DNA of 64,000 bases from an uncultured Candidatus Saccharibacteria bacterium (GTDB taxonomy: Bacteria; Patescibacteriota; Saccharimonadia; Saccharimonadales; UBA4665), in NCBI GenBank assembly GCA_964499935.1, contig CAZCMS010000001.1, positions 674,452 through 738,451 of the forward strand, in the 5' to 3' direction. Shown here piece after piece: positions 13,605 through 63,781 of this stretch. The first letter of the stretch is position 1. Each line of letters starts with the position of its first letter. The notes beneath the pieces are model-generated. The model did no database searches and was not told the origin of the DNA. It saw nothing but the letters and a program-made list of their open reading frames with translations. Made by a program: the position numbers and the translations under genes.

Positions 13605-13618
13605 ATTAAGCTTATGCT

Positions 13619-13705: not shown

Positions 13706-14257
13706 ATGCAAGATATAGATTCAGCCAGCAAAGACCGAGCCATAAAACTATTTGATAGTGCTGAGCTTGCATCGTTTGAAGTTGGAACAACGAAAGGTTT
13801 GCAGCAAATTCACAATTATCTCTTTGGCGGTTTATACGACTTTGCTGGCAAGATTCGATCCAAAAATATCAGCAAGGGGGGCTTCACCTTTGCGTCTGCC
13901 ATTTATCTAGTAAATGGTTTGGCCGAAATAGACAAAATGCCAGAAGCAACCTTTGAAGAGATTATTAAAAAGTATGTTGAGATGAATATAGCTCACCCTT
14001 TCATGGAGGGGAGCGGCCGCAGTACGCGCATCTGTTTAGACTTAATTTTGAAAAAAAACCTCAAGCAATGTATCGATTGGCAAAAAATAGACAAGAATGA
14101 TTATATGAATGCGATGCAGCGCAGCCCGGTCAACGATTTAGAGATTCGCGAACTACTACGTACTGGCCTCACGGACAAGATAGACGACCGAGAAGTATTC
14201 ATGAAAGGCATAGATCAGTCATACTACTACGAAGAGTCGGATGACTACAAAGGCTAA
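13706..14257 (+). CDS. Fic-domain protein, single-domain (class III-like)
   Basis: 183 aa. Fic motif [12 protein letters not shown]. The C-terminal SYYYEE sits where the class III inhibitory SxxxEG helix is found. Confidence 0.8.
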
Positions 14258-14275
14258 GTAGCCTCCTGCTTGGCT

Positions 14276-14335
14276 GCGGTTATAACTTCCTTTATCATTG
14301 CGAGCTAAAGTTAGAACCAAAATTACAGAGATGAG
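14276..14335 (+). repeat. Cassette-junction repeat, copy B
   Basis: GCGGTTATAACTTCCTTTATCATTGCGAGCTAAAGTTAGAACCAAAATTACAGAGATGAG is highly similar to 15251-15310. Confidence 0.7.
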
Positions 14336-14428
14336 AGTCTATATCTTCATTATGGGGTATGATTAATTCATGACGAATGCAGTTGATAATAACAGTTGGG
14401 GCTTATGGCAGCCTAAAGAACTCGCAAG

Positions 14429-15217
14429 GTGCCGAGAACTAAGGTTATGATGACTAAAAAAATAAAACCTGAAGCAATCACCAAAAAGAGCATAAAGCTG
14501 CAGAACCACTTAGGGTTGGCTGCAAGCATGTTAATCACCACTTTTATAATACTCAAAGTCTATGCAGTGGCTGGCTGGGATGCCACAACGGCTCGAGGCT
14601 TAATTGCAGCGACTGGCACAACCAACGTTGTAGTAGGTAGTCTCATTGCATCACTGCCAATCATATACTGGTCACTATTCATATTTGCATTACCTAGAAT
14701 CGAAAGAAAGCTAGAATTAAAAAGCAAAACCTCAGTTGAAAAATACGCAATCCTTACCCACTCATGGCCGATAATACTATTAATGTTTATTGTACCGCTT
14801 TTTATATTGCTCGCCGGACTAGCTCTCCTGACTCTAATAATTATAGACAATATTTTAACCAATAAGCGAAAGAGCAGAAATAGCGACATAAATTATGTAT
14901 CTAAATTTGAGGCTAATACAATTATGCTATCGTCGATTGCGCTTGTAATATTTACGAGCCTAGGAGTGCCCTGGCTCCCAGCGCAAGCAATAGATATTCC
15001 CGATGACGGAGTACAGGTAGGCTATGTCCTGAATAGCGGAAGTCGTTATTCAGAAGTCTTGTTAGAAAAACACCGTAAGCTCGTACGAGTCAGCATAGAC
15101 CGGACGGACTCTGCTAAGTATTGCAATGTTTCATCACATTGGGTGGAGCGTACCATTATTCAGGCTATTGATTATAAGCCAAAGTATCCTAGCTGTGCGG
15201 AAACTAAAAGTAAATAG
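14429..15217 (+). CDS. Hypothetical membrane protein
   Basis: 262-aa ORF with about 5 predicted hydrophobic helices and a soluble C-terminal domain. No recognisable family. Confidence 0.5.
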   Translation: MPRTKVMMTKKIKPEAITKKSIKLQNHLGLAASMLITTFIILKVYAVAGWDATTARGLIAATGTTNVVVGSLIASLPIIYWSLFIFALPRIERKLELKSKTSVEKYAILTHSWPIILLMFIVPLFILLAGLALLTLIIIDNILTNKRKSRNSDINYVSKFEANTIMLSSIALVIFTSLGVPWLPAQAIDIPDDGVQVGYVLNSGSRYSEVLLEKHRKLVRVSIDRTDSAKYCNVSSHWVERTIIQAIDYKPKYPSCAETKSK

Positions 15218-15250
15218 TTCGGCCACAAAGCTGCTAAATCTCGTTTTATC

Positions 15251-15310
15251 GCAGCCATAACTTCCTCTATCGTTGTGAGCTAAAGTTAGGACTAAAATTA
15301 CAGAGACGAG
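15251..15310 (+). repeat. Cassette-junction repeat, copy C
   Basis: GCAGCCATAACTTCCTCTATCGTTGTGAGCTAAAGTTAGGACTAAAATTACAGAGACGAG. Confidence 0.7.
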
Positions 15311-15381
15311 GATCTTTGTTTTTGTTTTTAAGGGGGTTAGAATAGAAACTACTATAACTCAACTCGTTGTATAATAAGCGT

Positions 15382-15987: not shown

Positions 15988-16227
15988 AGCAGTAGTACTA
16001 AATATTGCACCAAATCCAAAGAGTGGCGAAATTATTCGTATCATTCATGTAGGTTAATCGTATCATAGTGATACGATTATGGTTTTAACAGTCACAAAGC
16101 TTCGGAGCGCTAACTAAGGGCAGCGATTATACTAAAAATATTGTCAATTTACTGCTTACCGACTCTAACGTCAAACAGAGACGAAAGTTACAGGCAAGGA
16201 TGGCTCAGGATATTTGCTAAGTTCCTT

Positions 16228-16439
16228 GACCGACAAACGCTTGATACAGAGAGGTGGCAGTGAAAGATATCACTACTCTTAGTATCATCTGGTAGCGCAT
16301 GCTACAAGTCAAAATATTAAAGTCGAGAGTCTCTCGATCGTTCGAGTACAAATTATAGAGATCGTTTGATACATAACACCAGCGATCTTCATCATCGCTT
16401 TCACGTGTCACGATTGTTGGCACGATTTTGGCACGATTT
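16228..16439 (+). repeat. Dispersed repeat copy 2, interrupted by a 118-bp insert (16269-16386)
   Basis: Same left (GACCGACAAACGCTTGATACAGAGAGGTGGCAGTGAAAGAT) and right (CTTCATCATCGCTTTCACGTGTCACGATTGTTGGCACGATTTTGGCACGATT) halves as copy 1, separated by extra sequence. Confidence 0.6.
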
Positions 16440-30680: not shown

Positions 30681-30702
30681 ATTACGTCTATCGGTTTTCC
30701 AT

Positions 30703-30759
30703 TGCAGTTTCGTCGTTTACGACTCGTCAGTATAGCTTATATGTAATCTATAGACTGCT
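30703..30759 (-). ncRNA. Type III hammerhead ribozyme (copy 4, divergent helices)
   Basis: The minus strand reads GCAGU-C/UAUAG-12 nt-CUAUA/CUGACGA/GUCG-UAAA-CGAC/GAA/ACUGC. All core positions, G10.1-C11.1, A15.1-U16.1 and a GUC cleavage triplet are present. Confidence 0.8.
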
Positions 30760-30903
30760 AGGGAAGGGGTGTGATAGCCAAAAGGCTATTGATTCACACT
30801 CCCTCCCGGAGTTTTACTGGTTAACTCCACCAGAATCGATTTGCACGAATCGTGCCACCCTTCGATTAAAAGGTGTTACCTGAATTGACCGTAAACGATC
30901 AGA

Positions 30904-31146
30904 TCAGCCGTTCATCACCTTGGTGGTGACTTGAACAACCGAGTTGGGTTCGAGAACCTCATCCAGCTGGGCCTCACGACCGTTCACCTGGACCATCAGA
31001 CCTTGCTTGACCCTAACGTTCGCACAAGCGAGCGCATTAGCAACGGTCATGTCAGACGCATAGTCCAACTGATGGAGATCACCACCGAGCACAGCAACCT
31101 GCACCCAGCTCGGAGCTTCCTCGGCCACAACGATATCCGTAGACAT
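30904..31146 (-). CDS. Ubiquitin-like beta-grasp protein (ThiS/MoaD-like), C-terminal Gly
   Basis: 80 aa. VQVNGREAQLDEVLEPNSVVQV resembles ThiS/MoaD. Ends KVMNG-stop. GAGGAG RBS. Last gene of the E2-JAB-E1 operon. Confidence 0.65.
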   Translation of the reverse strand: MSTDIVVAEEAPSWVQVAVLGGDLHQLDYASDMTVANALACANVRVKQGLMVQVNGREAQLDEVLEPNSVVQVTTKVMNG

Positions 31147-31173
31147 ATCTACTTCACTACTCCTCTGTATTGA

Positions 31174-31842
31174 TCAGCGACTGAACAATTGTGCTTCTCG
31201 CACATGTACATCGATGTACGACTTGAGCTCCATATCTCGCGCAAATCGTGTCAACTGAGCAATCATGTGCCCAGCCAATACTACCGGCGGATGGATCACG
31301 GTACGCGCTGCGCACGGCAAAGGCGCACCCTCTCCATCAGGAAAAAGCCAATCCTTCTCGTAGGTGTCCACCGCATCCATATCCAGAGGGTTCAGCGCAA
31401 GCAATGTCATTTGCTCGCCACCAATCCGACCGTCAAGGTACAAAGGAACATCCGGGTTGAACTTGACTGACCCCCAAATATCGCATCGAGCCTGCATACT
31501 GTCTACACCGCTGATGACAACACCGCTGAGCGGGGTTTCTGCTGTCACAAATTCCTGGTGTGGAACAATGCTGCACTCAGACTCTCTGTAAGACTCCAGC
31601 ATTTCTGCTGCAGCCTCCACCTTGGGCCTACCAACATCGGTGCGGGAATAGATCAACTGCGCTGGCACATTGTGCGGCTCCACATAGTCCAAGTCCCACA
31701 AATGCAGCTCGCCACGAAGGCCGAGCTTCACCAACGGGAGCACCACAGCGCTACCGATTCCGCCGACACCAATCACATGGACAGGCCAGGTGAACTTACT
31801 CGGGTCGAAGATATCCGTCTGACCAGAATAGTCAGCAATCAC
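31174..31842 (-). CDS. ThiF/MoeB-type E1-like adenylating enzyme
   Basis: Rossmann motif IGVGGIGS, plus DLDYVEPHN and GVDSMQAR motifs. GTG start 7 nt after the JAB stop and behind GAGGTGA; the longer track ORF overlaps the JAB gene. Confidence 0.8.
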   Translation of the reverse strand: MIADYSGQTDIFDPSKFTWPVHVIGVGGIGSAVVLPLVKLGLRGELHLWDLDYVEPHNVPAQLIYSRTDVGRPKVEAAAEMLESYRESECSIVPHQEFVTAETPLSGVVISGVDSMQARCDIWGSVKFNPDVPLYLDGRIGGEQMTLLALNPLDMDAVDTYEKDWLFPDGEGAPLPCAARTVIHPPVVLAGHMIAQLTRFARDMELKSYIDVHVREAQLFSR

Positions 31843-31849
31843 AATTACT

Positions 31850-32479
31850 TCACCTCTCGATCTGAAGATTCGTAGGGTCGTATGGTACCGCATCAGCTGA
31901 AGCGCGAGGCTCCAAAGGAACGGTACGAAGTCGCCCAAAAAAACCCATCCCCTGGCTACGCACCTTGAGACGAATCTCGTCGGCGGTGCTGTCAAGCAAG
32001 CCTTCGTCGAACACTGTCACAATCTCGGGTATCACATCAATCTCGACCCGAAAAGGCTCGAAAATGTCCAAGCGACAGCGAAACTCGCCACGCTTGTTGA
32101 CAACCAGACTGATCAGCCAATCTCCAGGCCAGCGCTCAATATTCGCCGTATCGGTAGGGGAGAAATAGGACTCCATATTGACATGACTATGCCACTGGAA
32201 CTTGATAGATCCAGGATTCCCCGTACCGCTCAGCACCATCTCGTGAATGAAATGGGTCAGTGCATCATGGTCCACCTCAGCGTGTCCGGGCGAAGCCACT
32301 TGGTCCAAAATGAACACATCCTTCACACGGATGATGTCATCACGCACCTCCACCAAGCCAAATCCGTTGATCTCGGTCGGGCAATTGATGACGTATGCCA
32401 TCATCTTCTGCCAATCCTGAAACGAAATCTGCACTCGGGGGATACGAATCACTGCGGGGCCTGCCAAATTGACCGACAT
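31850..32479 (-). CDS. JAB/MPN (JAMM) metallopeptidase
   Basis: 209 aa with upstream Glu (TEINGFG) and the full JAMM motif HSHVNMESYFSPTD (HxHx7SxxD). Confidence 0.85.
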   Translation of the reverse strand: MSVNLAGPAVIRIPRVQISFQDWQKMMAYVINCPTEINGFGLVEVRDDIIRVKDVFILDQVASPGHAEVDHDALTHFIHEMVLSGTGNPGSIKFQWHSHVNMESYFSPTDTANIERWPGDWLISLVVNKRGEFRCRLDIFEPFRVEIDVIPEIVTVFDEGLLDSTADEIRLKVRSQGMGFFGRLRTVPLEPRASADAVPYDPTNLQIER

Positions 32480-33925
32480 CTACTTCATCTCCTCTTTATA
32501 CACGTGGAATGCTTGCAAAACATCTTTCTGATGCTCGGGGTTAACCGAACATAGACATTCAACTATCAAAGCCATCGCCTCAACATACTGCGCCTTGGCA
32601 AGGTGTTCATTGACGACTCTCTCCCGATTACCAAAACAAAACGCTCCGGTAGAGAGTCGATATACCGGGTAGCCACCTCTCCAGCTGCTCTTCACACCTG
32701 ACCGTAGCTCTTTTGCCGTTACCGTCAAGGTGTCGGCGCCAAGATCTACCTGCCAATCACCCAGGTCGTACGCTACCCCACTGTATTCATTGATGGCTCG
32801 CACGATGAGACGGATGCGATTGTTCACAACCTGCACTGCCAAAACTCCAGGCAGAGACATGATGCGATCAAATTCACCTCCAATATTCATCTCGAACAGT
32901 TGCTCGTTGGTTTCTTCGATAGCTCGCTCCAGGATCTGCTGCTGACTCGTCAAGTCATTTATCTCACCTTGCTGGCTTTTAACTTGCTCAGCGAGTGATC
33001 GCAAGACCTCGCGACCCCGCTTTACTGCCAAAACAACTTGCTTATGAGCCTCGATTCGATTCTTTTGCGCACTTTCTTGTCGCATTTCTACGTATACTGC
33101 ACGAGCACTATTAGGCGAGCTGGCATACGTCCGACTCACAGCAGGCCGCACCTCCGACGTTGAGTCTCCTCCCCCAACCAGAACATCTACTGGATTATGT
33201 CCATAGAAGTCAGGGGGCACCCACTCATCAGGTGGCGTCCACTCATCCCTTGGCTGGTGTTGCACGTCTCTTGCGCCTGGCTCCATCCTGGCTTGAAGTG
33301 GAGGATCCCAGCGAAGCAATAGCCCGCTCACAATCATGCTCAACCACCAAAAGGGGCCAAACATAAGCGTGACAACAAAGGGCCACACGTATCGCCAGGG
33401 CAAATCTGCCAATCGATGCTGCTGCTGTTCGTCCCGAAGATCAACCATATAGGCTATCAACGTTACTAGGCTAAAGAGCAGCCACATAACCAACAGTCCT
33501 GGATCAAAATACACAGCCGTTATAAAAGGCTTGAGACTGCTTTTTGTAAGGCCTAGCTTTAGTGGCTCACCTGTCTTGGCGACTTGCTTCAGCTGCCTAA
33601 GTTCCTTGGAATCTGAATCGAAAGGCTCCTCCTTATTGAGCTTGGCACTCAAATCCTGAAGACTCAAGACTTGTGTTGCCATCTGCATGCGTTTGCCACG
33701 TGTTTCTTCACTGACATCTTTTACATGCTCTTTGTTAGAGAGCATGATTTGAGCCAGTTTTTGGTTATTTCCCACGTTGTGGTTGGTGACCAAAACAATA
33801 CCGCCAGCGATAGCGATAGCAATCACACTCAATACGAGCGCAGCAATAAACATCAACGCTATCGATTCTCCGATATTGCGATCGATGAAGGTACCAAATC
33901 GCAACGGTGTCTCACGACGCGTCAT
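32480..33925 (-). CDS. Membrane-anchored coiled-coil protein with putative E2 (UBC-like) C-terminal domain
   Basis: 481 aa with TM helices near residues 20-45, 145-165 and 180-205, a Pro/Trp-rich linker, and a heptad-like region. The C-terminus has a four-strand pattern, then YPVYRLSTGAFCFGN (resembling HPN-x-G-x-IC-L of E2s) and a helix. Its stop directly abuts the JAB start. Confidence 0.45.
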   Translation of the reverse strand: MTRRETPLRFGTFIDRNIGESIALMFIAALVLSVIAIAIAGGIVLVTNHNVGNNQKLAQIMLSNKEHVKDVSEETRGKRMQMATQVLSLQDLSAKLNKEEPFDSDSKELRQLKQVAKTGEPLKLGLTKSSLKPFITAVYFDPGLLVMWLLFSLVTLIAYMVDLRDEQQQHRLADLPWRYVWPFVVTLMFGPFWWLSMIVSGLLLRWDPPLQARMEPGARDVQHQPRDEWTPPDEWVPPDFYGHNPVDVLVGGGDSTSEVRPAVSRTYASSPNSARAVYVEMRQESAQKNRIEAHKQVVLAVKRGREVLRSLAEQVKSQQGEINDLTSQQQILERAIEETNEQLFEMNIGGEFDRIMSLPGVLAVQVVNNRIRLIVRAINEYSGVAYDLGDWQVDLGADTLTVTAKELRSGVKSSWRGGYPVYRLSTGAFCFGNRERVVNEHLAKAQYVEAMALIVECLCSVNPEHQKDVLQAFHVYKEEMK

Positions 33926-33944
33926 CAGAATTCTCCCTTGTATA

Positions 33945-33994
33945 GTTTACTTCCAGTTTCAAATCTCGCTAAAGGTCTAAAACTGGAAGTAAAC
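33945..33994. repeat. Perfect 15-bp inverted repeat (cassette A 5' hairpin)
   Basis: GTTTACTTCCAGTTT (33945-33959) and AAACTGGAAGTAAAC (33980-33994), about 20 nt upstream of the operon start codon. Confidence 0.8.
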
Positions 33995-34217
33995 CGCATA
34001 CACAATTCAGGTAAATTATTAAAATACAAAGACACAATATCAACCATAAAAGGTCAATCTTACTCCTTGAATCTTATATTTAAATATAAGCACAAAATAT
34101 ACATTTAGTCAATTAGGTCGTATGATGAAACTATTCACCAATAGACGCCTTGAAATAAAATATACATACATAGGTATTAACTTTGGATAAATTAAGATTT
34201 ATAGGATAATACAGTCA

Positions 34218-40665: not shown

Positions 40666-40755
40666 CGAAAATTCAATTTTCTTGTATGATGTTACCTACG
40701 CAATGTAGATAGTAATCCGTTGCCGTATCTTGATAAGCAAAACATAGTTCGTATG

Positions 40756-40805
40756 AAGCGAGGGACAATGATAAAATCCACCGATTTTATAACTGTCCCT
40801 CGCTT
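40756..40805. repeat. Nested inverted repeat (cassette B 5' hairpin)
   Basis: 12-bp perfect arms AAGCGAGGGACA / TGTCCCTCGCTT enclosing a second stem ATAAAAT / ATTTTAT. Confidence 0.75.
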
Positions 40806-40864
40806 TGTGCAATACGTGCACACCAGCATTATGCTGAAAATCGAGGCAAAACCAAGGAATTGCT

Positions 40865-41251
40865 ATGCTGACAGTAGACAGACAGGAAACGGCAGAGGTA
40901 GCACATACGTGTGGCCTGACCGGTGACGCGAGTCTCATGATTCGCCTCGAGAGCGATGAGGTTCACAAGGAGCGACTGCAAGCTATGCTTCCGACGCTGC
41001 TGACCAAAGACGTTGCTCGACAGCTGAGTAGGGAAGTCTCGATCAATCGTCCTTGCGACCCGAGGAGGACGCCCAAAAATAGGAGTGGAGATCGATCAAT
41101 ATCGGTCAGTGTCGCTGGAGTTCAAGTCTCGCTACATATTGAAGTAACGACGCGGAAGCCTCAGGACTTCGAACCTTTCATTTGGGCAACGCGTGAGTTG
41201 TTGGTGCCGATTCTCGCGGGTCAGCTGACCGTATATAAGAAAATGCTCTAG
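40865..41251 (+). CDS. Hypothetical protein (GC-rich cassette B)
   Basis: 128-aa ORF with RBS AAGGAA 5 nt upstream. Higher G+C than the flanks. No recognisable family. Confidence 0.5.
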   Translation: MLTVDRQETAEVAHTCGLTGDASLMIRLESDEVHKERLQAMLPTLLTKDVARQLSREVSINRPCDPRRTPKNRSGDRSISVSVAGVQVSLHIEVTTRKPQDFEPFIWATRELLVPILAGQLTVYKKML

Positions 41252-41313
41252 TCAATAACAGAAGTAACCCAGTGGCGAAAGTGACTCGCAACAGCATATT
41301 CACGCTCAGCTCG

Positions 41314-41340
41314 CACCGTCTGGTGTCTGTTTTCGTGTTT
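41314..41340 (+). terminator. Short terminator-like hairpin plus GT-rich tract
   Basis: CACC-GTCT-GGTG followed by TCTGTTTTCGTGTTTT. Confidence 0.4.
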
Positions 41341-41354
41341 TGTTTTGCTTGTCA

Positions 41355-41414
41355 TTTTCGCTCTACAAATTAAATAGTTGTACTGATGAGTCCTCAGGAG
41401 GACGAAAGCGAAAG
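41355..41414 (+). ncRNA. Type III hammerhead ribozyme (copy 1)
   Basis: UUUUCGCU-C/UACAA-9 nt-UUGUA/CUGAUGA/GUCC-UCAGGA-GGAC/GAA/AGCGAAAG. An 8-bp helix III, 5-bp helix I and 4-bp helix II, with every invariant core base present. Confidence 0.85.
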
Positions 41415-55447: not shown

Positions 55448-55593
55448 GGAGTTAGTTAGGTTGTTGCTATTGATTATACATTCTTCTTACCATAATTAAT
55501 CATAAATTGACTAATATATAAATTAATACTATGATAAAATACCCTGTTGAATCTACATTCCAGTGGTGTACCTTGACAATCAGACAGTTATAG

Positions 55594-55653
55594 ACACGAG
55601 ATAAGATAGTGCTTCTTTAATTATTTTTTAAACAGCGCTACCTTATCTTGTGT
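55594..55653. repeat. Long inverted repeat (cassette C 5' hairpin)
   Basis: ACACGAGATAAG...CTTATCTTGTGT arms (one G-T pair) with partially paired extension. Related in sequence to 62157-62212. Confidence 0.7.
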
Positions 55654-55737
55654 CCTATGTGCAAAGAAAACATAGAACCGAAGTGTGCCCTAAGGGCATA
55701 CAACTGGCAAATAGTCAGAGATTAGGGGAAAGATAGT

Positions 55738-56205
55738 ATGCTGTCGTGTGATTGCCAGAAGGATAAGAGAGTTCACTACCCCAAGCCCAGTATGTGCGAC
55801 TCCCTGGCTCATGTCCTGTCAAAAGGTCACGTCATGGACGTGAAATACAGGAAGCGCATTGTATTGCTTCGTGGTAGCGAAGCCCCTTTTGCGGAGACCG
55901 TCGTCAACCTGAGTTATGCTGACGAGGGAATCTTCAAAGAACCCAGGTGGTATCTCGACCGTGACCCCAGCTTGACACCTGAAGGCGTGATCGCAGTTCG
56001 CGTGGAACGTGTTACAGAGATGAAGCTCTGCATTCCTTCTATGAGTAGGAATTTTGTAACGACCGTGCTGCCTGAGCCCAGTCGCGTATCACCTACGTTC
56101 TTCATCGATGGAACGTTGTGTCGCAATGGCGCTCGGCCTACCACCGTTCGAGATCGATACGGGAACGAGCACAAGTACGACCCCAAAAAGATGCGGGTCG
56201 TCTAG
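55738..56205 (+). CDS. Hypothetical protein (GC-rich cassette C)
   Basis: 155-aa ORF behind RBS AGGGGAAAG. GC-rich, with no recognisable family. Confidence 0.5.
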   Translation: MLSCDCQKDKRVHYPKPSMCDSLAHVLSKGHVMDVKYRKRIVLLRGSEAPFAETVVNLSYADEGIFKEPRWYLDRDPSLTPEGVIAVRVERVTEMKLCIPSMSRNFVTTVLPEPSRVSPTFFIDGTLCRNGARPTTVRDRYGNEHKYDPKKMRVV

Positions 56206-56290: not shown

Positions 56291-56310
56291 CACGGTCTTT
56301 CCGTGTTTTC
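56291..56310 (+). terminator. Rho-independent terminator-like hairpin
   Basis: CACGG-TCTTT-CCGTG followed by TTTTC. Confidence 0.5.
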
Positions 56311-56341
56311 TTATACCCTACTGTACTGTCTGTTTGTCATG

Positions 56342-56399
56342 TTTCGCTCTGCAAATAAAAGAGTTGTACTGATGAGTCCTAGAGAGGACGAAAGCGATA
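56342..56399 (+). ncRNA. Type III hammerhead ribozyme (copy 2)
   Basis: UCGCU-C/UGCAA-9 nt-UUGUA/CUGAUGA/GUCC-UAGAGA-GGAC/GAA/AGCGA. Helix I has a G-U where copy 1 has A-U. Confidence 0.8.
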
Positions 56400-56461
56400 A
56401 CATATATCAAGACCAGACTATTCTTGCTGCTTATGCTATATTAAGTGTAGGTAACATTGGA

Positions 56462-57352
56462 ATGGGAAAGAAATATCTACTTTTTGTCGTAAGCTTTGTC
56501 GTGGCAACCACGGCTCTCATAACGACCCTTATACTCAACAGAGACAGTATTGCACTACTTAACCCCGAGGGCAAGATTGCAGGTCATCAGTATGATTTAC
56601 TCATGTTTGCTGTCGGACTCAGTCTTATAGTTATTATTCCTGTTTTTATACTCGCATTTTATGTTCTTTGGAAATACAACGAAAACAACAAAAAAGTTCA
56701 GTACACCCCCTTATGGGATCATAATCACAGACTAGAACTTCTCTGGTGGGGCGTTCCTATTGTATTAGTAGTGATTCTGGCAGTCATTACATTTAAAAGT
56801 TCACACGATCTCGACCCTTACAAAGCAATTCAGTCCAACAAAGAACCTGTCACTATTCAAGTGATTGCGCTCGAATGGAAATGGCTATTTATCTACCCTG
56901 AGCAAAAGATTGCTACCGTCAATCACATTACTATTCCCGAAAATCGACCAATCAACTTTAGAATCACCGCCGACGCACCAATGAACTCATTTTGGATACC
57001 AAAGCTTGGCGGACAAGTCTATGCTATGTCAGGTATGGAAACCAAACTACATCTTATGGCGGATAAACCCGGAACATACAAAGGCGTCGCTGCTAATCTA
57101 AGCGGAGAAGGGCATGCAGGCATGAAATTTACTGTAGACTCAGTATCTGATGGAGATTTTGGTACATGGATAAATACCGTTAGGCAAAGTCAGGATTTTC
57201 TAGACACAAAGACGTATGAAGAACTCGCCAAGAAGAGCAAAAACAACCCTAAAGCCTATTACTCCCAAGTCCAACCTACACTTTACAATGATATTTTAAA
57301 TAAATATATGCCGGCAAAATCCGAGCAAGAAGATAATCACAAAGGACACTAA
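56462..57352 (+). CDS. cyoA: Quinol oxidase subunit II
   Basis: Two N-terminal TM helices and a cupredoxin domain. The CuA Cys ligands are absent (ANLSGEGHAGMKF), as in quinol oxidases. Start moved to ATG 56462 because the longer track ORF runs through the ribozyme. Confidence 0.8.
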   Translation: MGKKYLLFVVSFVVATTALITTLILNRDSIALLNPEGKIAGHQYDLLMFAVGLSLIVIIPVFILAFYVLWKYNENNKKVQYTPLWDHNHRLELLWWGVPIVLVVILAVITFKSSHDLDPYKAIQSNKEPVTIQVIALEWKWLFIYPEQKIATVNHITIPENRPINFRITADAPMNSFWIPKLGGQVYAMSGMETKLHLMADKPGTYKGVAANLSGEGHAGMKFTVDSVSDGDFGTWINTVRQSQDFLDTKTYEELAKKSKNNPKAYYSQVQPTLYNDILNKYMPAKSEQEDNHKGH

Positions 57353-57361
57353 GAGGTAGCT

Positions 57362-59320
57362 ATGCTAGGAAGACTTACATTAGATGCGATACCACACGAT
57401 ATAGTGGTACTGGGAGCAGGGTTGTCGATGATTGGCATGGGCCTCACTGCCGTAGCGATTGTAACGTATCTAAAAAAATGGAAATGGCTCTGGAAAAACT
57501 GGCTCACCTCGCTCGACCCAAAGAAAATTGGCATTATGTATGCAGTAGTTGCAGGCCTCATGCTCCTTCGTGGCGCTGCCGATGCATTTATGATGCGCAT
57601 ACAACAGGTTGTAGGAGTAGGTGATTCACAAGGCTTTTTATCCTCCGATCACTTCCAACAAGTCTTTTCGGCCCACGGTACTATCATGATTTTCTTTGTA
57701 GCTATGGGTTTTATATTTGCCCTTATGAACCTTATCGTACCACTTCAGATTGGCGCACGAGATGTTGCATTTCCGTTCTTAAATTCGGTTAGTTTCTGGC
57801 TGTTTGTAGCAGGTATGGCCCTTATGAATTTGTCGCTCATTGTTGGTGAATTTTCGGCAGCTGGCTGGCTGGCATATCCGCCGTTATCAGGGCTGGAATA
57901 CAGTCCTGGCGTAGGCGTCGATTATTGGATATGGGCATTACAGATCGCAGGTATTGGTAGCTTGCTTTCTGGGGTTAACTTCTTTGCCACTATTATTAAA
58001 ATGCGCGCACCTGGTATGACACTTATGAAAATGCCGATTTTTGTCTGGAGTGTACTTGGGAGCGTTATTCTTATCATGGCTGCATTCCCAATCTTAACTG
58101 CAACACTTGCAATGCTCTCCTTGGATCGCTTAATGGGTATGCATTTCTTCACCTCGGACTTAGGGGGCAATCCTATGCTATACGTTAACCTTATATGGGC
58201 CTGGGGACACCCTGAGGTATACATTCTTATACTTCCACTGTTCGGCGTTTTTTCAGAAATTGTTGCCACATTCTCTCGCAAACGCTTGTTTGGCTATACC
58301 TCGATGGTTGTAGCGCTCATGGCAATTACATTCTTATCGTTCACTGTATGGCTCCACCACTTCTTCACCATGGGAGGAGGTGCGAATGTGAATGCATTCT
58401 TTGGCATAATGACCATGATTATTGCCATACCAACAGGAGTGAAAGTCTTTAATTGGCTCTTTACTATGTACCGCGGACGAGTACAATTCAAAACACCAAT
58501 GCTGTGGTTTATGGGTTTTGTTACCACCTTTACTATTGGTGGTGTAACCGGCGTACTTATGTCGGTGCCAGCAATCGATTTCCAGATGCACAACAGCCTC
58601 TTTTTGGTCGCACATTTCCACAATATGATCATTGGTGGAGTAGTGTTTGGCATCTTTGCTGCACTTACGTATTGGTGGCCGAAGTTCACTGGATTCACGC
58701 TCAATGAAAGAATTGGCACCTACGCATTTTGGTGCTGGGAAATCGGTTTCTTGCTCGCATTCTTGCCTCTGTATGCGCTTGGTATGATGGGCGCCACCCG
58801 ACGGCTTGATCACTACGATGCGTCATTAGGTTGGCAATGGCTGTTTATTGTAGCAGCAGTAGGTGTAGTAGTTATTGGAATGGGCATTGCATTACAGCTT
58901 TGGCAAATTACATATAGTATTCTAAAACGAAACGAAAACAGAGTAGGCAATGATCCATGGAATGGTCGCACGCTCGAATGGGCAACTACCTCGCCTCCAC
59001 AGCATTACAATTTCCCGGTCACACCCAAAGTTTCAACCCGTGATGCATGGTGGGAGATAAAGCACAGCAAAAACAAACCTCATAAAACCAGTGAGGATAT
59101 TATTATGCCAAATAATACAGGGGCAGGGGTGTTTATTGCAGGATTCAGCCTCGTAATCGGTTTTGCGCTCATTTGGCATATCTGGTGGCTGGCAATTGTG
59201 GGACTTATTGGTGGGCTTGCAACAGTGATAATCAGACTATCCAACGACGATATCGAACACGTAATTCCTGCAAAAGAGATTGCGCATGAAGAAGCAGCGA
59301 TCAAGGGGGCAAAGGCATGA
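57362..59320 (+). CDS. cyoB: Heme-copper quinol oxidase subunit I
   Basis: 652 aa with conserved [10 protein letters not shown] and HHFFTMG motifs. Confidence 0.95.
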
Positions 59321-59907
59321 GTAATCACATGGATCATAACCATCAGCAAGCAACCACAGAAAAATCCTTGTTTGGCTTCTGGACCTACCTAATGACCGAC
59401 TTGATACTCTTTGCGACACTCTTTGCTACCTACGTCGTACTTCGCAATAATACGTACGACGGACCATCGGGCAAAGATATTTTTGACATGCCGTTTGTAC
59501 TAACTGAAACGATGATATTGTTGGCTAGCAGCTTTACAATTGGTATCGCTATGCTTGCTGCATACAAAAACCAGGTACGCACTGCACTTGGCTTCCTCTT
59601 CATAACCTTCTTGCTTGGTGCTGCGTTCTTGGGAATGGAATTATATGAATTCCAGCACCTTGTACACGAAGGCTATGGCTGGAAGGCAAGCGCATTCCTG
59701 TCGGCGTTCTTTACGCTTGTAGGTACACACGGACTGCACATTCTTGCAGGTCTTATTTGGTCGGTTGTTTTGATGGTGCAAATTGCTAAACGAAAACTCA
59801 CCGTTCATACAACCCGACGCCTTGCACTCTTTAGCTTGTTTTGGCATTTCTTAGATATCGTATGGATATTTATTTTTACCATCGTTTACTTACAGGGGGT
59901 ACTGTAA
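59317..59907 (+). CDS. cyoC: Quinol oxidase subunit III
   Basis: 196 aa with 5 TM helices and [10 protein letters not shown] near the C-terminus. Overlaps cyoB by 4 nt. Confidence 0.9.
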
Positions 59908-60287
59908 TGAGTAAAAACAATACTACACAACAAAACGCTCAATACCACGGCAGTGTACACACCTATATTATAGGTTTTGTTGGCTCGGTGATCTTTACGC
60001 TTGCTGCATATTATATGGTGGTCAGCGAACGCTTTAGCTACACTACCGCGCTTACAGCAATCACTATTCTTGCGGTTGCACAATTGCTCATACAATTAGT
60101 ATTCTTCTTGCACCTTGGTAAAGAGTCAAAACCACGCTGGAATGCGATGGTATTTTCATTCATGCTACTCGTTGTTGGTATCGTAGTAATTGGCTCAATA
60201 TGGGTTATGAATAATCTGCATTACAACATGATGCCATCGCAAGAAATAGACAAAAAGATGGAGTACGAAAGCCAAAAAGGCTTCTAG
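59907..60287 (+). CDS. cyoD: Quinol oxidase subunit IV
   Basis: 126 aa with 3 TM helices. The internal ATG overlaps the cyoC stop (TAATG). Confidence 0.75.
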   Translation: MSKNNTTQQNAQYHGSVHTYIIGFVGSVIFTLAAYYMVVSERFSYTTALTAITILAVAQLLIQLVFFLHLGKESKPRWNAMVFSFMLLVVGIVVIGSIWVMNNLHYNMMPSQEIDKKMEYESQKGF

Positions 60288-60292
60288 CAAGC

Positions 60293-61156
60293 ATGTTGCG
60301 TCTGCGAGAATATTATTTATTAACCAAGCCTGGTATTATTCGTGGCAACCTTATGACCGCTGCTGCTGGGTTCTTTTTTGCTAGCCAAGGAAACTTTGAT
60401 TGGTGGCTAGGCGCAGCGGTCTTATCAGGAACTGCGCTCGTCATTGCATCGGGGTGTGTTTTCAATAACTACCTTGATCGTGGTATTGACAAAAAAATGG
60501 CACGCACCCAGGGTAGAGTGCTCGTAACAGGTGCTATCTCTGCAAAAGCTGCGCTAACATTTGCCACAACTTTAGCCACTATCGGATTCGTAATATTGGC
60601 ACTGTACACAAATTACCTTACTGTTTTTATAGGCATAGTTGGGATTGTAGATTACGTTATTTTATATGGCTACGCCAAGCGCCACTCTGTCCACAGTACA
60701 CTCATTGGCGGAGTTTCTGGGTCTACAGCGCTGGTGGCAGGATATGTTGCTGTTACAGGCAGTCTTGATGTCGTAGCGCTGTTACTGTTTCTAATCATGG
60801 CGTTTTGGCAGATGCCACATTTTTATGCGATTGGCGTGTATCGAAAAAAAGATTACACTGCAGCCGGCTTACCTATTTTACCTGTAAAAAAGGGTGTTCT
60901 AGATACTAAAAGACAAACGCTTGTCTATATTATCGGCTACATTATCACTGCTGGTCTGCTTGGTGTATTGGGCTATACCGGCTATACATATCTTCTCATC
61001 ATGACCGCACTTGGGCTGTGGTGGCTTATTGTCGCACTGCAAGGATTCAAGCCTAAAACCGATGACATAAAGTGGGGTCATAAGATATTTGGTATATCGC
61101 TTTTGATACTTATGGCGTTCTCTTTGCTGATTTCACTCGATTGGCTGCTGCCATAA
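60293..61156 (+). CDS. cyoE: Protoheme IX farnesyltransferase (heme O synthase)
   Basis: 287 aa UbiA-family protein. Motifs NNYLDRGIDKKMARTQGR and WQMPHF. Confidence 0.9.
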   Translation: MLRLREYYLLTKPGIIRGNLMTAAAGFFFASQGNFDWWLGAAVLSGTALVIASGCVFNNYLDRGIDKKMARTQGRVLVTGAISAKAALTFATTLATIGFVILALYTNYLTVFIGIVGIVDYVILYGYAKRHSVHSTLIGGVSGSTALVAGYVAVTGSLDVVALLLFLIMAFWQMPHFYAIGVYRKKDYTAAGLPILPVKKGVLDTKRQTLVYIIGYIITAGLLGVLGYTGYTYLLIMTALGLWWLIVALQGFKPKTDDIKWGHKIFGISLLILMAFSLLISLDWLLP

Positions 61157-61168
61157 TAGTCTTGTTTT

Positions 61169-61225
61169 TTTCGCTTTCGTCCTCTCTAGGACTCATCAGT
61201 ACAACTAAATATTTGTAGAGCGAAT
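61169..61225 (-). ncRNA. Type III hammerhead ribozyme (copy 3)
   Basis: The minus strand reads AUUCGCU-C/UACAA-8 nt-UUGUA/CUGAUGA/GUCC-UAGAGA-GGAC/GAA/AGCGAA. It lies 13 nt from the cyoE stop on the opposite strand. Confidence 0.85.
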
Positions 61226-61243
61226 ATGACAAACAGACAAAAG

Positions 61244-61263
61244 AAAAACACACGGAAACCGTG
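61244..61263 (-). terminator. Rho-independent terminator-like hairpin
   Basis: Minus strand CACGG-TTT-CCGTG followed by TGTTTTT, downstream of the 61323-62078 gene. Confidence 0.5.
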
Positions 61264-61322
61264 CGAATTAGAGAAAGCCTAGCGTCATACTCGCAGTAAC
61301 GCATATTGCTAAACCCAAAGAG

Positions 61323-62078
61323 TCAGCGAACCGTGTATAGATAGGGCTGTACGCTATAAGGCGTCGTAACGATAGCTTCGCTATCGTTCCAGCCAACATA
61401 TTGCCTCAGTGCGCTCATCACCGTATCGTGATGTGCGATTCGATCGTGCTCTCGATTAGCGACAATCCACACGTCGCGACCAGAGATCCTCACAGAACGG
61501 ATAGCCCCTGTGTCCGCCAAAAGCAAGCGCAAGCGCACCCACCCAAGACCACCGGCCTCGTACTGCACATTCGGCGCAATCTCCGAAGCCATGTCGGGGC
61601 CGAGCTCCAGGGAAAACCGGTACTGTCTCGTGTAACCCGAGAACAACGAACCAGGGTAGTCGACCCAGCTGATACTCCGAGCGACCTCAGAGACCTCTGC
61701 CTTCGTATAACAGTACGACTGTGTCGGTTGCTGTGGCAGTCGATCCATAATCAAGAGCGCGTTGACGCGATCAGCGATCGCACGAAGATACTCAAGTGCT
61801 TCTTCGCACTCGAATACATCGTTCGCAATCGTTACGCGGAGCGCTTGTGCGTTGACTTCGATCGTGTCGACGTGAGCAAGCTCCTTGAAGAGCATACGAA
61901 CAAACATCAACGGCTGGCGATCCATGAGAGCCATATGAGCCGGATCCTGCATATCGACACGCCGAATCTTACACGGCGTACTGTCGGGCGGAAAAATTCC
62001 CTGAGGAACGAAAAAACTCACCTCATTTCTGGCAATCTCGATCAGAATCTTCACGGTATTATTGGTCATAACAGACAT
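61323..62078 (-). CDS. Hypothetical protein (GC-rich cassette D)
   Basis: ORF with start set at the internal ATG (MSVMTNN) behind GGAGAAAG. GC-rich, with no recognisable family. Confidence 0.5.
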   Translation of the reverse strand: MSVMTNNTVKILIEIARNEVSFFVPQGIFPPDSTPCKIRRVDMQDPAHMALMDRQPLMFVRMLFKELAHVDTIEVNAQALRVTIANDVFECEEALEYLRAIADRVNALLIMDRLPQQPTQSYCYTKAEVSEVARSISWVDYPGSLFSGYTRQYRFSLELGPDMASEIAPNVQYEAGGLGWVRLRLLLADTGAIRSVRISGRDVWIVANREHDRIAHHDTVMSALRQYVGWNDSEAIVTTPYSVQPYLYTVR

Positions 62079-62156
62079 ACTGTTCTTTCTCCAAACCTGT
62101 GGCACAATACCCTCCTACAACTGTAGGAGCTGTGTTTTTCTGTAACACATCACAAG

Positions 62157-62212
62157 ATAAGGTATCGTCACTTAAGTTAATTATCATAAAAACTTAAGCA
62201 GCCATACCTTAC
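62157..62212. repeat. Long inverted repeat (cassette D 5' hairpin)
   Basis: AAGGTAT / ATACCTT and CTTAAGT / ACTTAAG arms. On the minus strand, ACGAGGTAAGGTAT...GATACCTTATCTTGTG parallels cassette C. Confidence 0.7.
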
Positions 62213-62347
62213 CTCGTATTGGTGCTATCTGATTGTCAATATACATTCTTGGAGTTACCTCAACAAAGAATATGTATATTATATACTATAATAAATGTAA
62301 CAGCAAAAAAGCGTGTACTTTATATTCATAAGCGCTATAATATAGAT

Positions 62348-62599
62348 ATGATCTTAGTACTTCACATCACTATTGCGCTCGCAAGCATCATATACACCTC
62401 CATGACATATATTTCACCAACGAAAGGCAAGGTTCAAACCTCATCCGGCCTAGCTGCATTAACACTACTAACAGGCACTGTGCTCGTTATCAGCACACAC
62501 AGTGCTCTACTGCAGGCATGCGCTACCGGAGTCACTTATCTCGCTATAGTATCGGTAGGCATTATTGCAGCGGACCGTAAACTCAAACGTTCTCATTAG
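62348..62599 (+). CDS. Small hypothetical membrane protein (83 aa)
   Basis: Internal ATG directly after TATAAT. Three hydrophobic segments. Confidence 0.4.
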   Translation: MILVLHITIALASIIYTSMTYISPTKGKVQTSSGLAALTLLTGTVLVISTHSALLQACATGVTYLAIVSVGIIAADRKLKRSH

Positions 62600-62816
62600 A
62601 ACTTGCATAAAATACCTATCTCTATCACCTGCGGTAAAAAAGATACGCATTCTATACGCTCAATATAGGGAAAAACGACAAGCAGGCACAAATACACAGA
62701 GAGAAAACACACCAGGATAGGCGAGAATCAAACATGTTATCATGCCTACTTGTTGCTTGCCCTAGCAACGAGCAACCTTTTGCACAAAGGTTAGCCAAAG
62801 CTAATACCAAGGACGA

Positions 62817-63290
62817 TCAGCTCAAGCTGATGGCGATTCCCTGACCACCCAGGAGGAGACGCTGGTAAAGACCTTGCTGCGACTCATCGCCACGCGTCGT
62901 GATACCCGTAGTCGACTTGACGTCTTCGCCAACCTGCTGCAGAAGCCCCATATAGAGCCACGCCTGCACCACGAAATAGGCATTCTCGAAAGGGATAGCG
63001 AACTCGCCGATAGAGACATATACCTCCGCGACAAACTCGGTCTCCATAATGACCAACGAGAAATCACGCGAATCAGACACAGACTGATCGGACATGTTCG
63101 GGGAGCAGTCATGCGAAATGCAGTGCAATTCGTTGGCGAGCCCCTCAGCAATCTCGGAGAAAACCTCCTCCAAACGATCCTTCGTAAACCGACCCGAGGC
63201 CGACGTAGACAGCTTGATCGAAACCTCACCACCATGACCAAACTTGATGGTGGTCTCCGCGAAAACCTGCTCCGGTACCGAAGTAGACAT
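62817..63290 (-). CDS. Hypothetical acidic protein (GC-rich cassette E)
   Basis: 157-aa ORF behind the strong RBS GGGAGGAGAG. Competing frames on both strands lack an RBS. Confidence 0.55.
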   Translation of the reverse strand: MSTSVPEQVFAETTIKFGHGGEVSIKLSTSASGRFTKDRLEEVFSEIAEGLANELHCISHDCSPNMSDQSVSDSRDFSLVIMETEFVAEVYVSIGEFAIPFENAYFVVQAWLYMGLLQQVGEDVKSTTGITTRGDESQQGLYQRLLLGGQGIAISLS

Positions 63291-63372
63291 ATGTTCTCTC
63301 CTCCCTATAAGGGAATCGTTTCTCCATTACCACCCAAATGGGCGCCAGATTCTTGTGTTTTTCGTACTGCTA

Positions 63373-63427
63373 CACGAGAATGAGGAAAGAACCCAGAAAA
63401 CTTGCTGAATTTTTTCCTCGTCTCGTG
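63373..63427. repeat. Long inverted repeat (cassette E 5' hairpin)
   Basis: CACGAGAATGAGGAAA / TTTCCTCGTCTCGTG arms with a loop of about 24 nt, 83 nt upstream of the 63290 start. Confidence 0.7.
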
Positions 63428-63781
63428 CAGGCTATTATATACCTGCTTGTCAAAATACGTCTTTGGAGTTGCCTCAACAAAGATTAAACATAATTTTATA
63501 ACTTTAATAGTGTTGTGTCAAGTATATTTTAGGGATCTCTTGAGGCTCTTGCTCTCTTTCGGTTTTGTTATATATAGCACCTAAACATTGCATTATTAAC
63601 ATTTTTATGATATAATTTATGCACTTTGTAGAGTGTTGTGGCATTGGCTCATTACTCCGAAGTACATTAACAGATCTCTGTCTATTGAGTTAGGCTACCG
63701 TTTTGGCCGGCAACATATATATGATCGAACTTTTCATTGTATGTATTTTGCCCGCCAAAACAACAAAGGAGCAGTGGCGAC

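Follow-up and report, generated by a model that had tools for sequence, protein, structure and literature searches.

Type III Hammerhead Motifs Bracketing a cyoABCDE Operon of an Uncultured Saccharibacteria Bacterium as Candidate 3'-Terminal Elements of Accessory Gene Cassettes

Organization of the cyo Locus

The analyzed stretch of DNA, hereafter the window, comprises 64,000 nucleotides (nt) of an uncultured Candidatus Saccharibacteria bacterium (assembly GCA_964499935.1, contig CAZCMS010000001.1, positions 674,452–738,451 of the forward strand). It contains a cyoABCDE operon (56462–61156, plus strand), in which the cyoA product was attributed to the Pfam families COX2 and COX_ARM and the cyoE product to UbiA, and each flank of the operon carries a type III hammerhead ribozyme motif. 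The positions given for these motifs in the initial annotation were confirmed. Copy 2 (56343–56399, plus strand) ends 63 nt before the cyoA start codon (ATG at 56462), and copy 3 (61169–61224, minus strand) starts 13 nt after the end of the cyoE stop codon at 61156. Both point toward the operon, and both lie at the ends of GC-rich gene cassettes whose open reading frames (ORFs; 55738–56205, plus strand, and 61323–62105, minus strand) have a GC content of 0.53, compared to 0.437 for the window. Two further hammerheads were found in the window, namely copy 1 (41357–41413, plus strand) and a fourth copy (30702–30759, minus strand). The analysis suggests that each hammerhead is probably the 3'-terminal element of a self-contained accessory gene cassette.

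Three syntenic contigs from related genomes were found via homologues of the cassette-encoded proteins (payloads): L001, with proteins about 97% identical to those of the window, L002 and L204 (GCA_040960395.1). Between L002 and the window, identity is 66% for CyoA, 81% for CyoB and 79% for CyoE, and the third codon positions of the cyo genes differ at 55–57% of sites. In all four genomes, the operon is bracketed by convergent hammerheads and the gene order is collinear; the cyoE-side ribozyme of L002 and L204 directly adjoins the stop codon of cyoE. One cassette is located upstream of cyoA in the window, L001 and L002, and two tandem cassettes are located there in L204. Besides cyo, the neighbors of the cassettes are an LPG-synthase-type gene, an FAD oxidase gene and ABC transporter genes.

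An extended −10 promoter-like motif of cyoA, TGCTATATT (56434–56442, plus strand), was identified by manual reading 3' of the hammerhead. The 40 nt around this motif have 88% identity to those of L002; L204 has the motif itself, and L126, a contig with a more distant cyo operon, has a similar one, TGCTATAGT.

Detection and Structure of the Hammerhead Ribozymes

The core pattern CTGATGAG-N4-30-CGAAA matched the window at 41383 (plus strand), 56369 (plus strand) and 61175/61169 (minus strand). By chance, 0.02 matches were expected, and four matches were reached in none of 100 shuffled sequences. In Rfam, the window hammerheads surfaced only when E-value thresholds were used: the type III family RF00008 matched positions 56342–56399 (plus strand) with 37.2 bits (E = 2.5e-5) and 61175–61219 (minus strand) with 28.9 bits. 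Since these scores are below the gathering threshold, the default Rfam scan returns only a tRNA and standard annotation misses the hammerheads. The shortfall is due to divergent stems and loops; the core is not responsible. A covariance model, R1, was made from 115 related hammerheads. It scored the three known copies at 50.4, 61.3 and 53.5 bits (copy 2 at 50.4 and copy 3 at 61.3) and detected the fourth copy at 44.4 bits.

Manual reading of copy 2 agreed with the Rfam and R1 matches. Stem III is formed by 56343–56348 with 56392–56397, the stem I hairpin occupies 56350–56368, the predicted cleavage site follows C56349, the core is CUGAUGA…GAAA and stem II is GUCC/GGAC. The predicted cleavage site of copy 3 follows C61218. 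In both copies, the order of elements is UUCGCU (stem III 5' strand), the cleavage nucleotide C, a stem I hairpin UACAA…UUGUA, the core CUGAUGA, stem II as GUCC-loop-GGAC, GAAA and the stem III 3' strand GCGA(A). The fourth copy has the core CUGACGA and stem II GUCG/CGAC. Stem I of the window copies is short (5–7 base pairs, bp), and its A/U-rich loop has 8 to 9 nt. The topology is type III, with loops closing stems I and II and with an open stem III, and the covariation described below agrees with it.

The core positions C3 U4 G5 A6 N7 G8 A9…G12 A13 A14 are intact in all four window copies, as is the A15.1–U16.1 pair; the U–A pair is invariant in 115 of 115 relatives. The sole core variation is at position 7, which is known to vary in hammerheads, and was seen in the fourth window copy and in L001 (CUGACGA). 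The triplet at the predicted cleavage site has the form NUH throughout: copies 1–3 have CUC, the fourth copy GUC. By folding alone, the three-way junction is the minimum-energy fold for three of the four window copies, copy 3 among them, while stems II and III of copy 2 are kept in its centroid fold.

The fold was also evaluated in an alignment of 115 distinct hammerheads. In this alignment, 95.3% of the cells are paired, against 68% in shuffles, and the covariation score is 0.745, against 0.19 in shuffles. When the partners were slid by 1–3 columns, the score fell to 0.06–0.10 and pairing to 33–42%. Double changes were found in 11 of 13 variable pairs. Pairing reaches 98% in helix I and 89% in helix III, and double changes occur in 6 of 7 and 5 of 6 pairs, respectively. 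Stem II was fixed by the search pattern, and its covariation is visible only in copies found otherwise, namely as GUUC/GAAC in L204 and as GUCG/CGAC at window position 30702.

The initial annotation had described copies 2 and 3 as near-identical inverted repeats of about 110 bp. Inverted arms of 39 nt with 97% identity were found (56362–56400 and 61168–61206), and the similarity reaches about 96–109 nt when indels are allowed. The stem II loop UAGAGA is common to copies 2 and 3; the L002 counterparts differ.

The hammerheads are clustered: there are four in the 64-kb window, three and one relic within 8 kb in L002, and three within 6 kb in L204. Hammerheads with a mutated core were also observed at the 3' ends of cassettes or genes, namely in the window (about 62612–62680, minus strand, where the core is lost), in L002 (7809–7863, plus strand) and in L126 (15009–15061, minus strand). 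The degenerate hammerheads of L002 and L126 lie directly 3' of an FAD oxidase gene.

Organization of the Cassettes

Four cassettes (A–D) were found in the window. Alignment revealed that their 5' and 3' ends are common to all four, unlike their ORFs. The 5' part of a cassette consists of a sigma-70-type promoter, a hairpin (P1), a conserved strand UUGACAAGCAG or its variants, a long hairpin (P3) and a small hairpin (P4). The remainder contains a Shine–Dalgarno sequence, one GC-rich orphan ORF and a hairpin of 5–7 bp followed by a U-tract. The cassette ends with a strand CUGCUUGUCA (CUGYUUGUCA) and, about 2–3 nt later, the type III hammerhead. The hammerheads are located 120–165 nt 3' of same-strand ORFs with a GC content of 0.53–0.54.

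Cassette B, on the cyoA side, begins with a promoter-like site (TTGACT-17-TATGAT, 55507–55535, plus strand), which was found by a promoter scan with 10 of 12 matches and whose equivalent is conserved in L002 and L204. It is followed by the predicted structured leader (55542–55676), with P1 at 55542–55566, P3 at 55595–55652 and a small P4. The 5' strand of a putative closing helix, UUGACAAUCAGACAGU (55573–55588), lies between P1 and P3. The payload ORF (55738–56205) encodes a protein of 155 amino acids (aa), has a GC content of 0.528 and belongs to no known family. The trailer contains a terminator-like hairpin CACGGUCUUUCCGUG (56291–56305) with a U-rich tract after it, also conserved in cassette C, L002 and L204, and the 3' strand of the closing helix, ACUGUCUGUUUGUCA (56325–56339), about 3 nt 5' of stem III. 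The TTGACA of the closing strand was considered as a −35 box and rejected, since no consistent −10 box is found 3' of it and a better promoter exists about 60 nt upstream.

Cassette C, on the cyoE side, is transcribed from the minus strand. Its promoter-like site and leader occupy 62119–62306, with the leader at 62119–62270. The site TTGCTG-17-TATAAT (62306–62278) was read manually, matches the −35 consensus at 3 of 6 positions and is unlisted by the promoter scan; P1 comes after it, followed by the 5' closing strand (62239–62225), P3 and P4. The orphan payload ORF (61323–62078) encodes 251 aa from an ATG at 62078, or 260 aa from a GTG at 62105, with a GC content of 0.53. The trailer (61227–61265) contains a terminator-like hairpin (61265–61249) and the 3' closing strand (61240–61227).

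Cassette A (40690–41413, plus strand) has a 128-aa ORF (40865–41251) and closing strands UUGAUAAGCAAAACA and UGUUUUGCUUGUCA, and it is ended by hammerhead copy 1. Cassette D (62612–63521, minus strand) has a promoter at 63521–63493 (found by the scan), a leader at 63375–63480, a 157-aa ORF (62817–63290) and a trailer. Its ends are like those of the other cassettes, with closing strands UUGACAAGCAGG and CCUGCUUGUC, and its hammerhead is the decayed one mentioned above.

Structured Leader and Leader–Trailer Helix

The leader, with P1, the closing strand, P3 and P4, is a candidate new cis-regulatory RNA motif, as suggested by the pattern of substitutions. RNAalifold analysis of 20 leaders revealed compensatory changes in 17 of 20 pairs of P3. 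At the conserved base of its stem, G·U pairs are frequent and A·C pairs are few, which points to an RNA structure of the sense strand. The conserved 3' arm of P3 is (C)CUYAUCUUGUG (CCUCAUCUUGUG). No match to the leader was found in Rfam 15. The module of leader and closing strand recurs at about 15–20 loci titled Saccharibacteria or Saccharimonadales.

The two closing strands of cassette B, UUGACAAUCAGACAGU and ACUGUCUGUUUGUCA, are complementary, and the predicted helix spans 0.6–1 kb between the 5' and 3' ends of the cassettes. The partners change together between cassettes, as in cassettes A (UUGAUAAGCAAAACA/UGUUUUGCUUGUCA) and D (UUGACAAGCAGG/CCUGCUUGUC). The helix was predicted in both the minimum-energy and the centroid folds of the 815-nt cassette B RNA, and the folding energy of this RNA is lower than that of shuffles (z = −6.9, based on only 20 of them).

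A motif-free comparison was also made, in which the 24 nt 5' of stem III were compared with the region 150–2500 nt upstream in 119 hammerhead loci. A helix score of at least 24, corresponding to about 12 Watson–Crick pairs with an internal mismatch allowed, was reached in 21 of the 119 loci, compared to 1 in the parallel-strand control and 1 in the downstream control. In the top-scoring loci, the helix partner is nearly always situated no farther than 400 nt 5' of the ORF start, the exceptions being one partner 51 nt inside the assigned ORF and one just at the ORF start. The sequences of the helix vary widely among loci.

An RNA helix is favored over DNA repeats as the nature of the closing strands, judging from their arrangement. 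The repeats are enclosed by the conserved promoter and P1 at one end and by the ribozyme at the other, the neighboring leader helix is a clear RNA structure, and the closing helix is retained in cassettes ending in a terminator (see below). Terminal inverted repeats of a DNA transposon were also considered for these strands and rejected, as the promoter, P1 and the hammerhead lie outside them and the leader has RNA-type covariation.

Local pairing of the trailer strand was observed in some Saccharibacteria (L015, L035, L055, L114, L119, L120 and others). The alternation between local pairing and pairing with the leader could be a structural switch.

Payload ORFs

No matches for the payload ORFs of cassettes A–D were found in Pfam, PHROGs (none significant) or PADLOC. 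The relationship between payloads at the same site differs from cassette to cassette. ORF B and the ORF at the same site in L002 are similar at a random level (25–55% identity, BLASTP E = 1.4), that is, no homologue is detectable there, and only weak similarity to the B2 ORF of L204 was seen (30% identity, E = 5e-4). For ORF C, L002 has a counterpart with 52% identity, and L204 has an unrelated 127-aa ORF in its place. The counterparts of ORF D have identities of 71% in L204 and 39% in L002. The substitutions between orthologous payloads peak at third codon positions, which indicates that the payloads are coding genes, evolving faster than their neighbors.

Two proteins were retrieved in the homologue search for ORF C and two in that for ORF D. 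A profile search with ORF C among 1.84 billion representatives yielded no more than the family itself, apart from two weak hits in long proteins (8 matched stretches each), which were discounted. The AlphaFold model of ORF C had a mean confidence (pLDDT) of 45.

Among loci L003–L120, 87 could be compared in base composition: ORFs 5' of hammerheads exceed the rest of their locus in GC content by a median of 8.3 points, and the difference is positive in 85% of them. The GC content at third codon positions (GC3) of the upstream ORFs is 0.57–0.67, against about 0.45–0.49 for cyoB. As orthologues with no more than 39–71% identity still show the excess, it appears to be maintained.

Comparison with Related and Distant cyo Loci

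A comparison of cassette B between the window and L002 showed that the leader is 72–85% identical and that the trailer, the hammerhead and the cyoA promoter region are 65–88% identical. A set of distant operons was obtained by a metagenome scan with CyoA (80 loci, 45–60% identity, 861 kb). The R1 model found only two hammerheads in these 80 loci. No hammerhead was found beside cyoA in the 68 distant operons with at least 400 nt upstream. After cyoE, one was found among the 39 operons with cyoE and at least 400 nt downstream; this copy, in L126, has a core mutated to UUAAUGA. In the comparison of cyo flanks, as suggested in the initial annotation, the bracket was kept in the four close genomes and absent from the 68 distant cyoA flanks. 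It is clade-specific and not a property of cyo operons.

L126 also carries a cassette on the cyoA side, between the LPG-synthase-type gene and cyoA. It has a promoter, P1, a predicted closing helix of 18–19 bp and a tentative ORF of about 94 aa, whose translation was not clean at the coordinates used, and it ends in an intrinsic terminator, GGCUGCUGGUAGGCAGC followed by UUUUUUAUUUUU, at the place occupied by the hammerhead in the others. A pair of closing strands followed by an intrinsic terminator was also found in L124.

In L202 (SRR8931242) and L203 (SRR8931241), Logan contigs of near-identical strains, the contig ends inside the cyoE-side hammerhead, which is consistent with an assembly break at a short inverted repeat. 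Near-identical contigs also occur in the community of SRR30535871. As contigs break in the repeat, short-read contigs cannot test inversion of the segment between the repeats.

A small membrane-protein gene (about 62345–62599, plus strand) is parted from cyoE by cassette C in the window and lies directly 3' of cyoE in L126 (14765–15010, plus strand). This arrangement implies that cassette C is an insertion, or that it was lost in L126. The gene may be an unrecognized accessory gene of the cyo locus.

Survey of Related Hammerheads

Related hammerheads were sought in a genome survey with one genome per species, using a core with the fixed stem II GUCC/GGAC, and at least 118 loci were found. Nearly all of the hammerheads at the loci listed are type III. 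In qualitative terms, and among the matches listed, about 70% of 80 titles name Patescibacteria groups. In viral contigs, the strict pattern gave no matches. A looser pattern gave at least 120 loci, at which hammerheads with the same stem II pattern are mostly type I (102 of 130), and the cassette leader was found at none of the matched viral-contig loci.

Most of the 127 hammerheads examined have a same-strand ORF (60 to 500 aa) ending no more than about 200 nt upstream. Almost all of these upstream ORFs are mutually unrelated, with 106 of 127 being singletons; in a Pfam scan of 106 upstream ORFs, few matched, and the matches were spread over 16 families with 1 or 2 ORFs each. Among 95 surveyed loci, the downstream neighbor lies on the same strand in 52 and is convergent in 43, and the median gap between the ribozyme and a same-strand downstream ORF is 71 nt. 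The link with an upstream ORF and the lack of an orientation preference downstream indicate that the ribozyme belongs with the upstream gene.

At loci of the Parcubacteria type (L069, L057, L113, L062, L043 and others), tandem arrays were observed, with 2–3 hammerheads within about 1 kb and ORFs of 60–140 aa between them. Many ribozymes of these arrays are followed by a conserved GUUCUUUGA-like sequence.

Fourth Hammerhead and Other Features of the Window

The fourth hammerhead closes a GC-rich four-gene operon (33925–30904, minus strand; region 30702–34217). It encodes a 481-aa membrane protein of unknown function (32480–33925), a JAB-domain protein (31850–32479), a ThiF/E1-like protein (31174–31995) with PADLOC hits to BilD and E1-E2, and an 80-aa protein (30904–31146) without a family match, which appears ubiquitin-like by reading of its sequence; all four genes are on the minus strand. 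In its predicted gene content, the operon resembles Bil-type ubiquitin-like defense systems. Its leader differs from the leader of the other cassettes.

Direct repeats of 44–66 nt with 80–95% identity were also observed in the window, at 11583–11689 and 16214–16438 (about 4.7 kb apart) and in 13560–15322 (about 1 kb apart). They are unrelated to the hammerhead cassettes.

Discussion

The anatomy of the cassettes makes it rather likely that the hammerheads generate the 3' ends of cassette mRNAs and sever read-through RNA. In this locus, the putative transcription units would be cassette B, directed rightward on the cyoA flank, and cassette C, directed leftward on the cyoE flank. A polymerase passing the weak hairpin and U-tract would transcribe the ribozyme, which would fold and cut after C17. 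The cassette mRNA would be left with a 2',3'-cyclic phosphate about 10 nt past the helix joining its 3' end to the leader, and the ribozyme body would remain on the downstream RNA, which would start with a 5'-OH. The result would be a defined, end-paired and probably nuclease-resistant cassette mRNA uncoupled from the RNA downstream, which in the present case would be cyo mRNA for cassette B and antisense cyoE RNA for cassette C. The hairpin and U-tract may already terminate part of the transcripts, in which case the ribozyme would handle the read-through. Plausibly, the end-pairing and the cyclic phosphate protect the mRNA and uncouple it from its neighbors. Cleavage in vivo, mRNA stabilization and a benefit to the cell are what we infer from these features.

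The strongest argument for a 3'-end role is the natural exchange of the ribozyme for an intrinsic terminator. The boundary position, the terminator-like hairpin and the terminator of L126 at the same place make a transcript-ending or transcript-separating role reasonable. The bracket around cyo would follow from both intergenic flanks of the operon being cassette sites in a small clade.

Several observations weigh against the proposed 3'-end role. The hammerheads of the window are motifs with covariation, and their self-cleavage activity is predicted from the conservation of the motif; copies 2 and 3 score 37.2 and 28.9 bits, below the RF00008 gathering score of 48.5 bits. The upstream hairpin and U-tract could terminate most transcripts, so that the ribozyme would be rarely transcribed and a fail-safe at best. 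A closing helix is clearly detected in only about one-fifth to one-quarter of the surveyed loci, its mismatches (11 G·U and 9 A·C) do not separate an RNA helix from DNA inverted repeats, and in some trailers the same strand pairs with a local partner 85–99 nt upstream over about 20 bp. The predominance of Patescibacteria is qualitative, having been obtained with one fixed stem II sequence among the matches listed. Finally, the bracket is kept in four genomes despite the turnover of payloads, which could mean selection linked to cyo.

Among the other explanations, mobility or circularization at the RNA level is unlikely, but it addresses several features of the cassettes. It would involve processing into unit-length RNA, ends held by a helix for ligation, or RNA copied back into DNA. 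Tandem cassettes each ended by a hammerhead (L204, L002 and many arrays of the survey), the helix-held ends and the stable fold of the cassette B RNA fit this explanation, as do the maintained GC excess of the payloads and the variation in cassette number and payload at fixed sites. However, each cassette has its own promoter, and its transcript would therefore carry a 5' triphosphate instead of the 5'-OH that ligation requires. Among the ORFs inspected or scanned beside the cassettes (the window as a whole was not annotated), none was noted as encoding a reverse transcriptase or integrase. No payload occurs twice in the window, and orthologous payloads at syntenic sites diverge like genes. 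Moreover, circular or spliced products of clustered bacterial hammerheads have been sought, and none were found (Perreault et al. 2011, PMC3088659).

The initial annotation proposed an insulator dedicated to cyo, in which the ribozymes would be selected to keep sense and antisense read-through out of the operon. Part of this proposal stands, as the hammerheads are elements at the boundary between cassette and operon. The bracket pointing at cyo has been kept in four genomes while payloads changed, the cyoE-side ribozyme abuts the stop codon in two of the relatives, and on the other side the ribozymes adjoin the cyoA promoter region, which is itself conserved. A device serving cyo in particular is nevertheless improbable, given its absence from all 68 distant cyoA flanks and the single, mutated copy among 39 cyoE flanks. 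More than 100 unrelated genes are followed by a hammerhead of this type, about 15–20 of them with the module of leader and closing strand, and there is no bias in the orientation of the neighbor. In addition, cyoA has its own conserved promoter 3' of the ribozyme, and cleavage cuts RNA and does not stop the polymerase, so antisense cyoE RNA and read-through RNA would still be made.

It is also improbable, and more distinctly so, that the ribozyme serves the downstream gene, with copy 2 trimming read-through RNA and giving the cyoA mRNA a folded ribozyme and a 5'-OH start in the manner of RiboJ, by which this mRNA would be standardized or stabilized. A type III body does stay on the 3' product, copy 2 is on the same strand as cyoA and close to it, and the median gap to a same-strand downstream ORF in the survey is only 71 nt. 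Against this, the gene beyond the ribozyme is convergent for copy 3 and for 43 of the 95 surveyed ribozymes, the closing helix and the conserved trailer mark the ribozyme as part of the upstream unit, the conserved extended −10 motif lies between the ribozyme and cyoA, and the terminator that replaces the ribozyme in L126 would abolish read-through.

Similarly, there is little probability that the elements are selfish or relics, with conserved flanks serving as portable homology for cassette swapping and self-cleavage having no role in the cell. The replacement of payloads between conserved flanks, the greater conservation of these flanks than of synonymous sites and the persistence of degenerate hammerheads in the window, L002 and L126 would agree with it. 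However, more than 100 copies combine an intact core with covariation of stems I and III, a pattern that indicates selection on the fold, and not mere sequence identity; P3 covaries as well.

The proposal of the initial annotation that the inverted hammerheads flip the 4.8-kb cyo segment is very improbable: the repeats exist and the common UAGAGA loop of copies 2 and 3 hints weakly at gene conversion, but the identity tract is only 39 nt, the window, L001, L002 and L204 are collinear, no invertase or recombinase is adjacent among the ORFs inspected beside the cassettes, cyoA would be parted from its conserved promoter context only if the crossover lay outside it, with no obvious gain, and the contig ends at the repeat in two assemblies fit an assembly break.

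With a 3'-end role as the preferred explanation, the cassettes can be compared with known systems. Like the members of Rfam RF00008, the window copies have three helices, the core CUGANGA…GAAA, loop-closed stems I and II, an open stem III and a CUC triplet; they differ in falling below the gathering threshold and in their short stem I (5–7 bp). Retrozymes and viroid-like circular RNAs carry type III hammerheads in units of about 0.7–1.1 kb and form folded RNA with held ends. The cassettes are similar in the hammerhead type, the unit size and the strongly folded RNA, but they are protein-coding and have their own promoters, a single 3' ribozyme per unit and stable syntenic sites.

Integron cassettes and phage morons are arrays of single-gene units with conserved ends and diverse, mostly unknown payloads, and morons have their own promoter and terminator. 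A unit number that varies at a fixed site and a base composition different from that of the host are shared with the present cassettes. In contrast, no integrase or attC-type site was noticed in the ORFs inspected here, the ends are RNA elements and there is no phage context. In the tac/fbi pairing of hok mRNA and in rRNA processing stems, a long-range helix controls stability, processing or translation. The cassettes resemble the hok fold-back in that a 5' leader pairs with the 3' end of the same transcript; they differ in having no antisense RNA partner or toxin signature, orphan payloads of 100–260 aa and a 3' end predicted to be made by a ribozyme instead of exonuclease trimming or RNase III. 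RiboJ, a synthetic type III hammerhead insulator attributed to Lou et al. (2012), reportedly sits in the 5' untranslated region of the gene it serves. Both have a type III hammerhead at a unit boundary, with the upstream RNA severed (in the cassettes, by prediction) and a folded ribozyme with a 5'-OH left downstream, but here the ribozyme is tied to the upstream unit, a convergent gene is often next, and cyoA has its own promoter.

The closest resemblance is to clustered bacterial hammerheads (Perreault et al. 2011, PMC3088659; de la Pena et al. 2017, PMC6155905), which are found mostly in prophages, next to single genes or to small ORFs that are not conserved. In these papers, the role of the hammerheads, of which bacterial genomes have hundreds, is stated as an open question dating from 2010–2011, and the processing of long transcripts into gene-length mRNAs is suggested. 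Several close hammerheads beside short variable ORFs are common to both. The present cassettes differ in being chromosomal and syntenic, with their own promoter, a predicted leader–trailer helix and exchange with a terminator. There is also no recognizable prophage: the PHROGs search with the payloads gave no significant hit and no integrase was seen beside the cassettes. The copies in genomes are almost all type III, and those in viral contigs are mostly type I.

In the limited literature searched, nothing relevant was found on hammerheads in Saccharibacteria, Patescibacteria or the candidate phyla radiation. The predominance in Patescibacteria, the module of promoter and leader, the leader–trailer helix, the interchange with a terminator and the maintained GC excess of the payloads appear to be new. 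It is possible, and we suggest it tentatively, that Saccharibacteria, and perhaps other Patescibacteria, have an undescribed class of exchangeable cassettes defined at the RNA level by a paired leader and trailer, a 3' end formed by a hammerhead or a terminator, and GC-rich orphan genes that turn over.

For the cyo operon, the meaning is mostly negative, the bracket being a local consequence of cassette insertion and no part of the control of the respiratory operon. A few Saccharibacteria can now be cultivated and transformed. If the proposed role is true, the job of the hammerhead in the cell would be to make the 3' ends of dedicated closed-loop accessory mRNAs, which would be a testable answer to the question of what genomic hammerheads of bacteria do; the anatomy of the loci, with end-pairing and terminator exchange, points to 3'-end formation and uncoupling, rather than to replication or ligand regulation. 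Given the fast-evolving orphan payloads and the hammerhead that closes a Bil-like operon, the cassettes may mark an accessory, conflict-related gene pool of Saccharibacteria epibionts.

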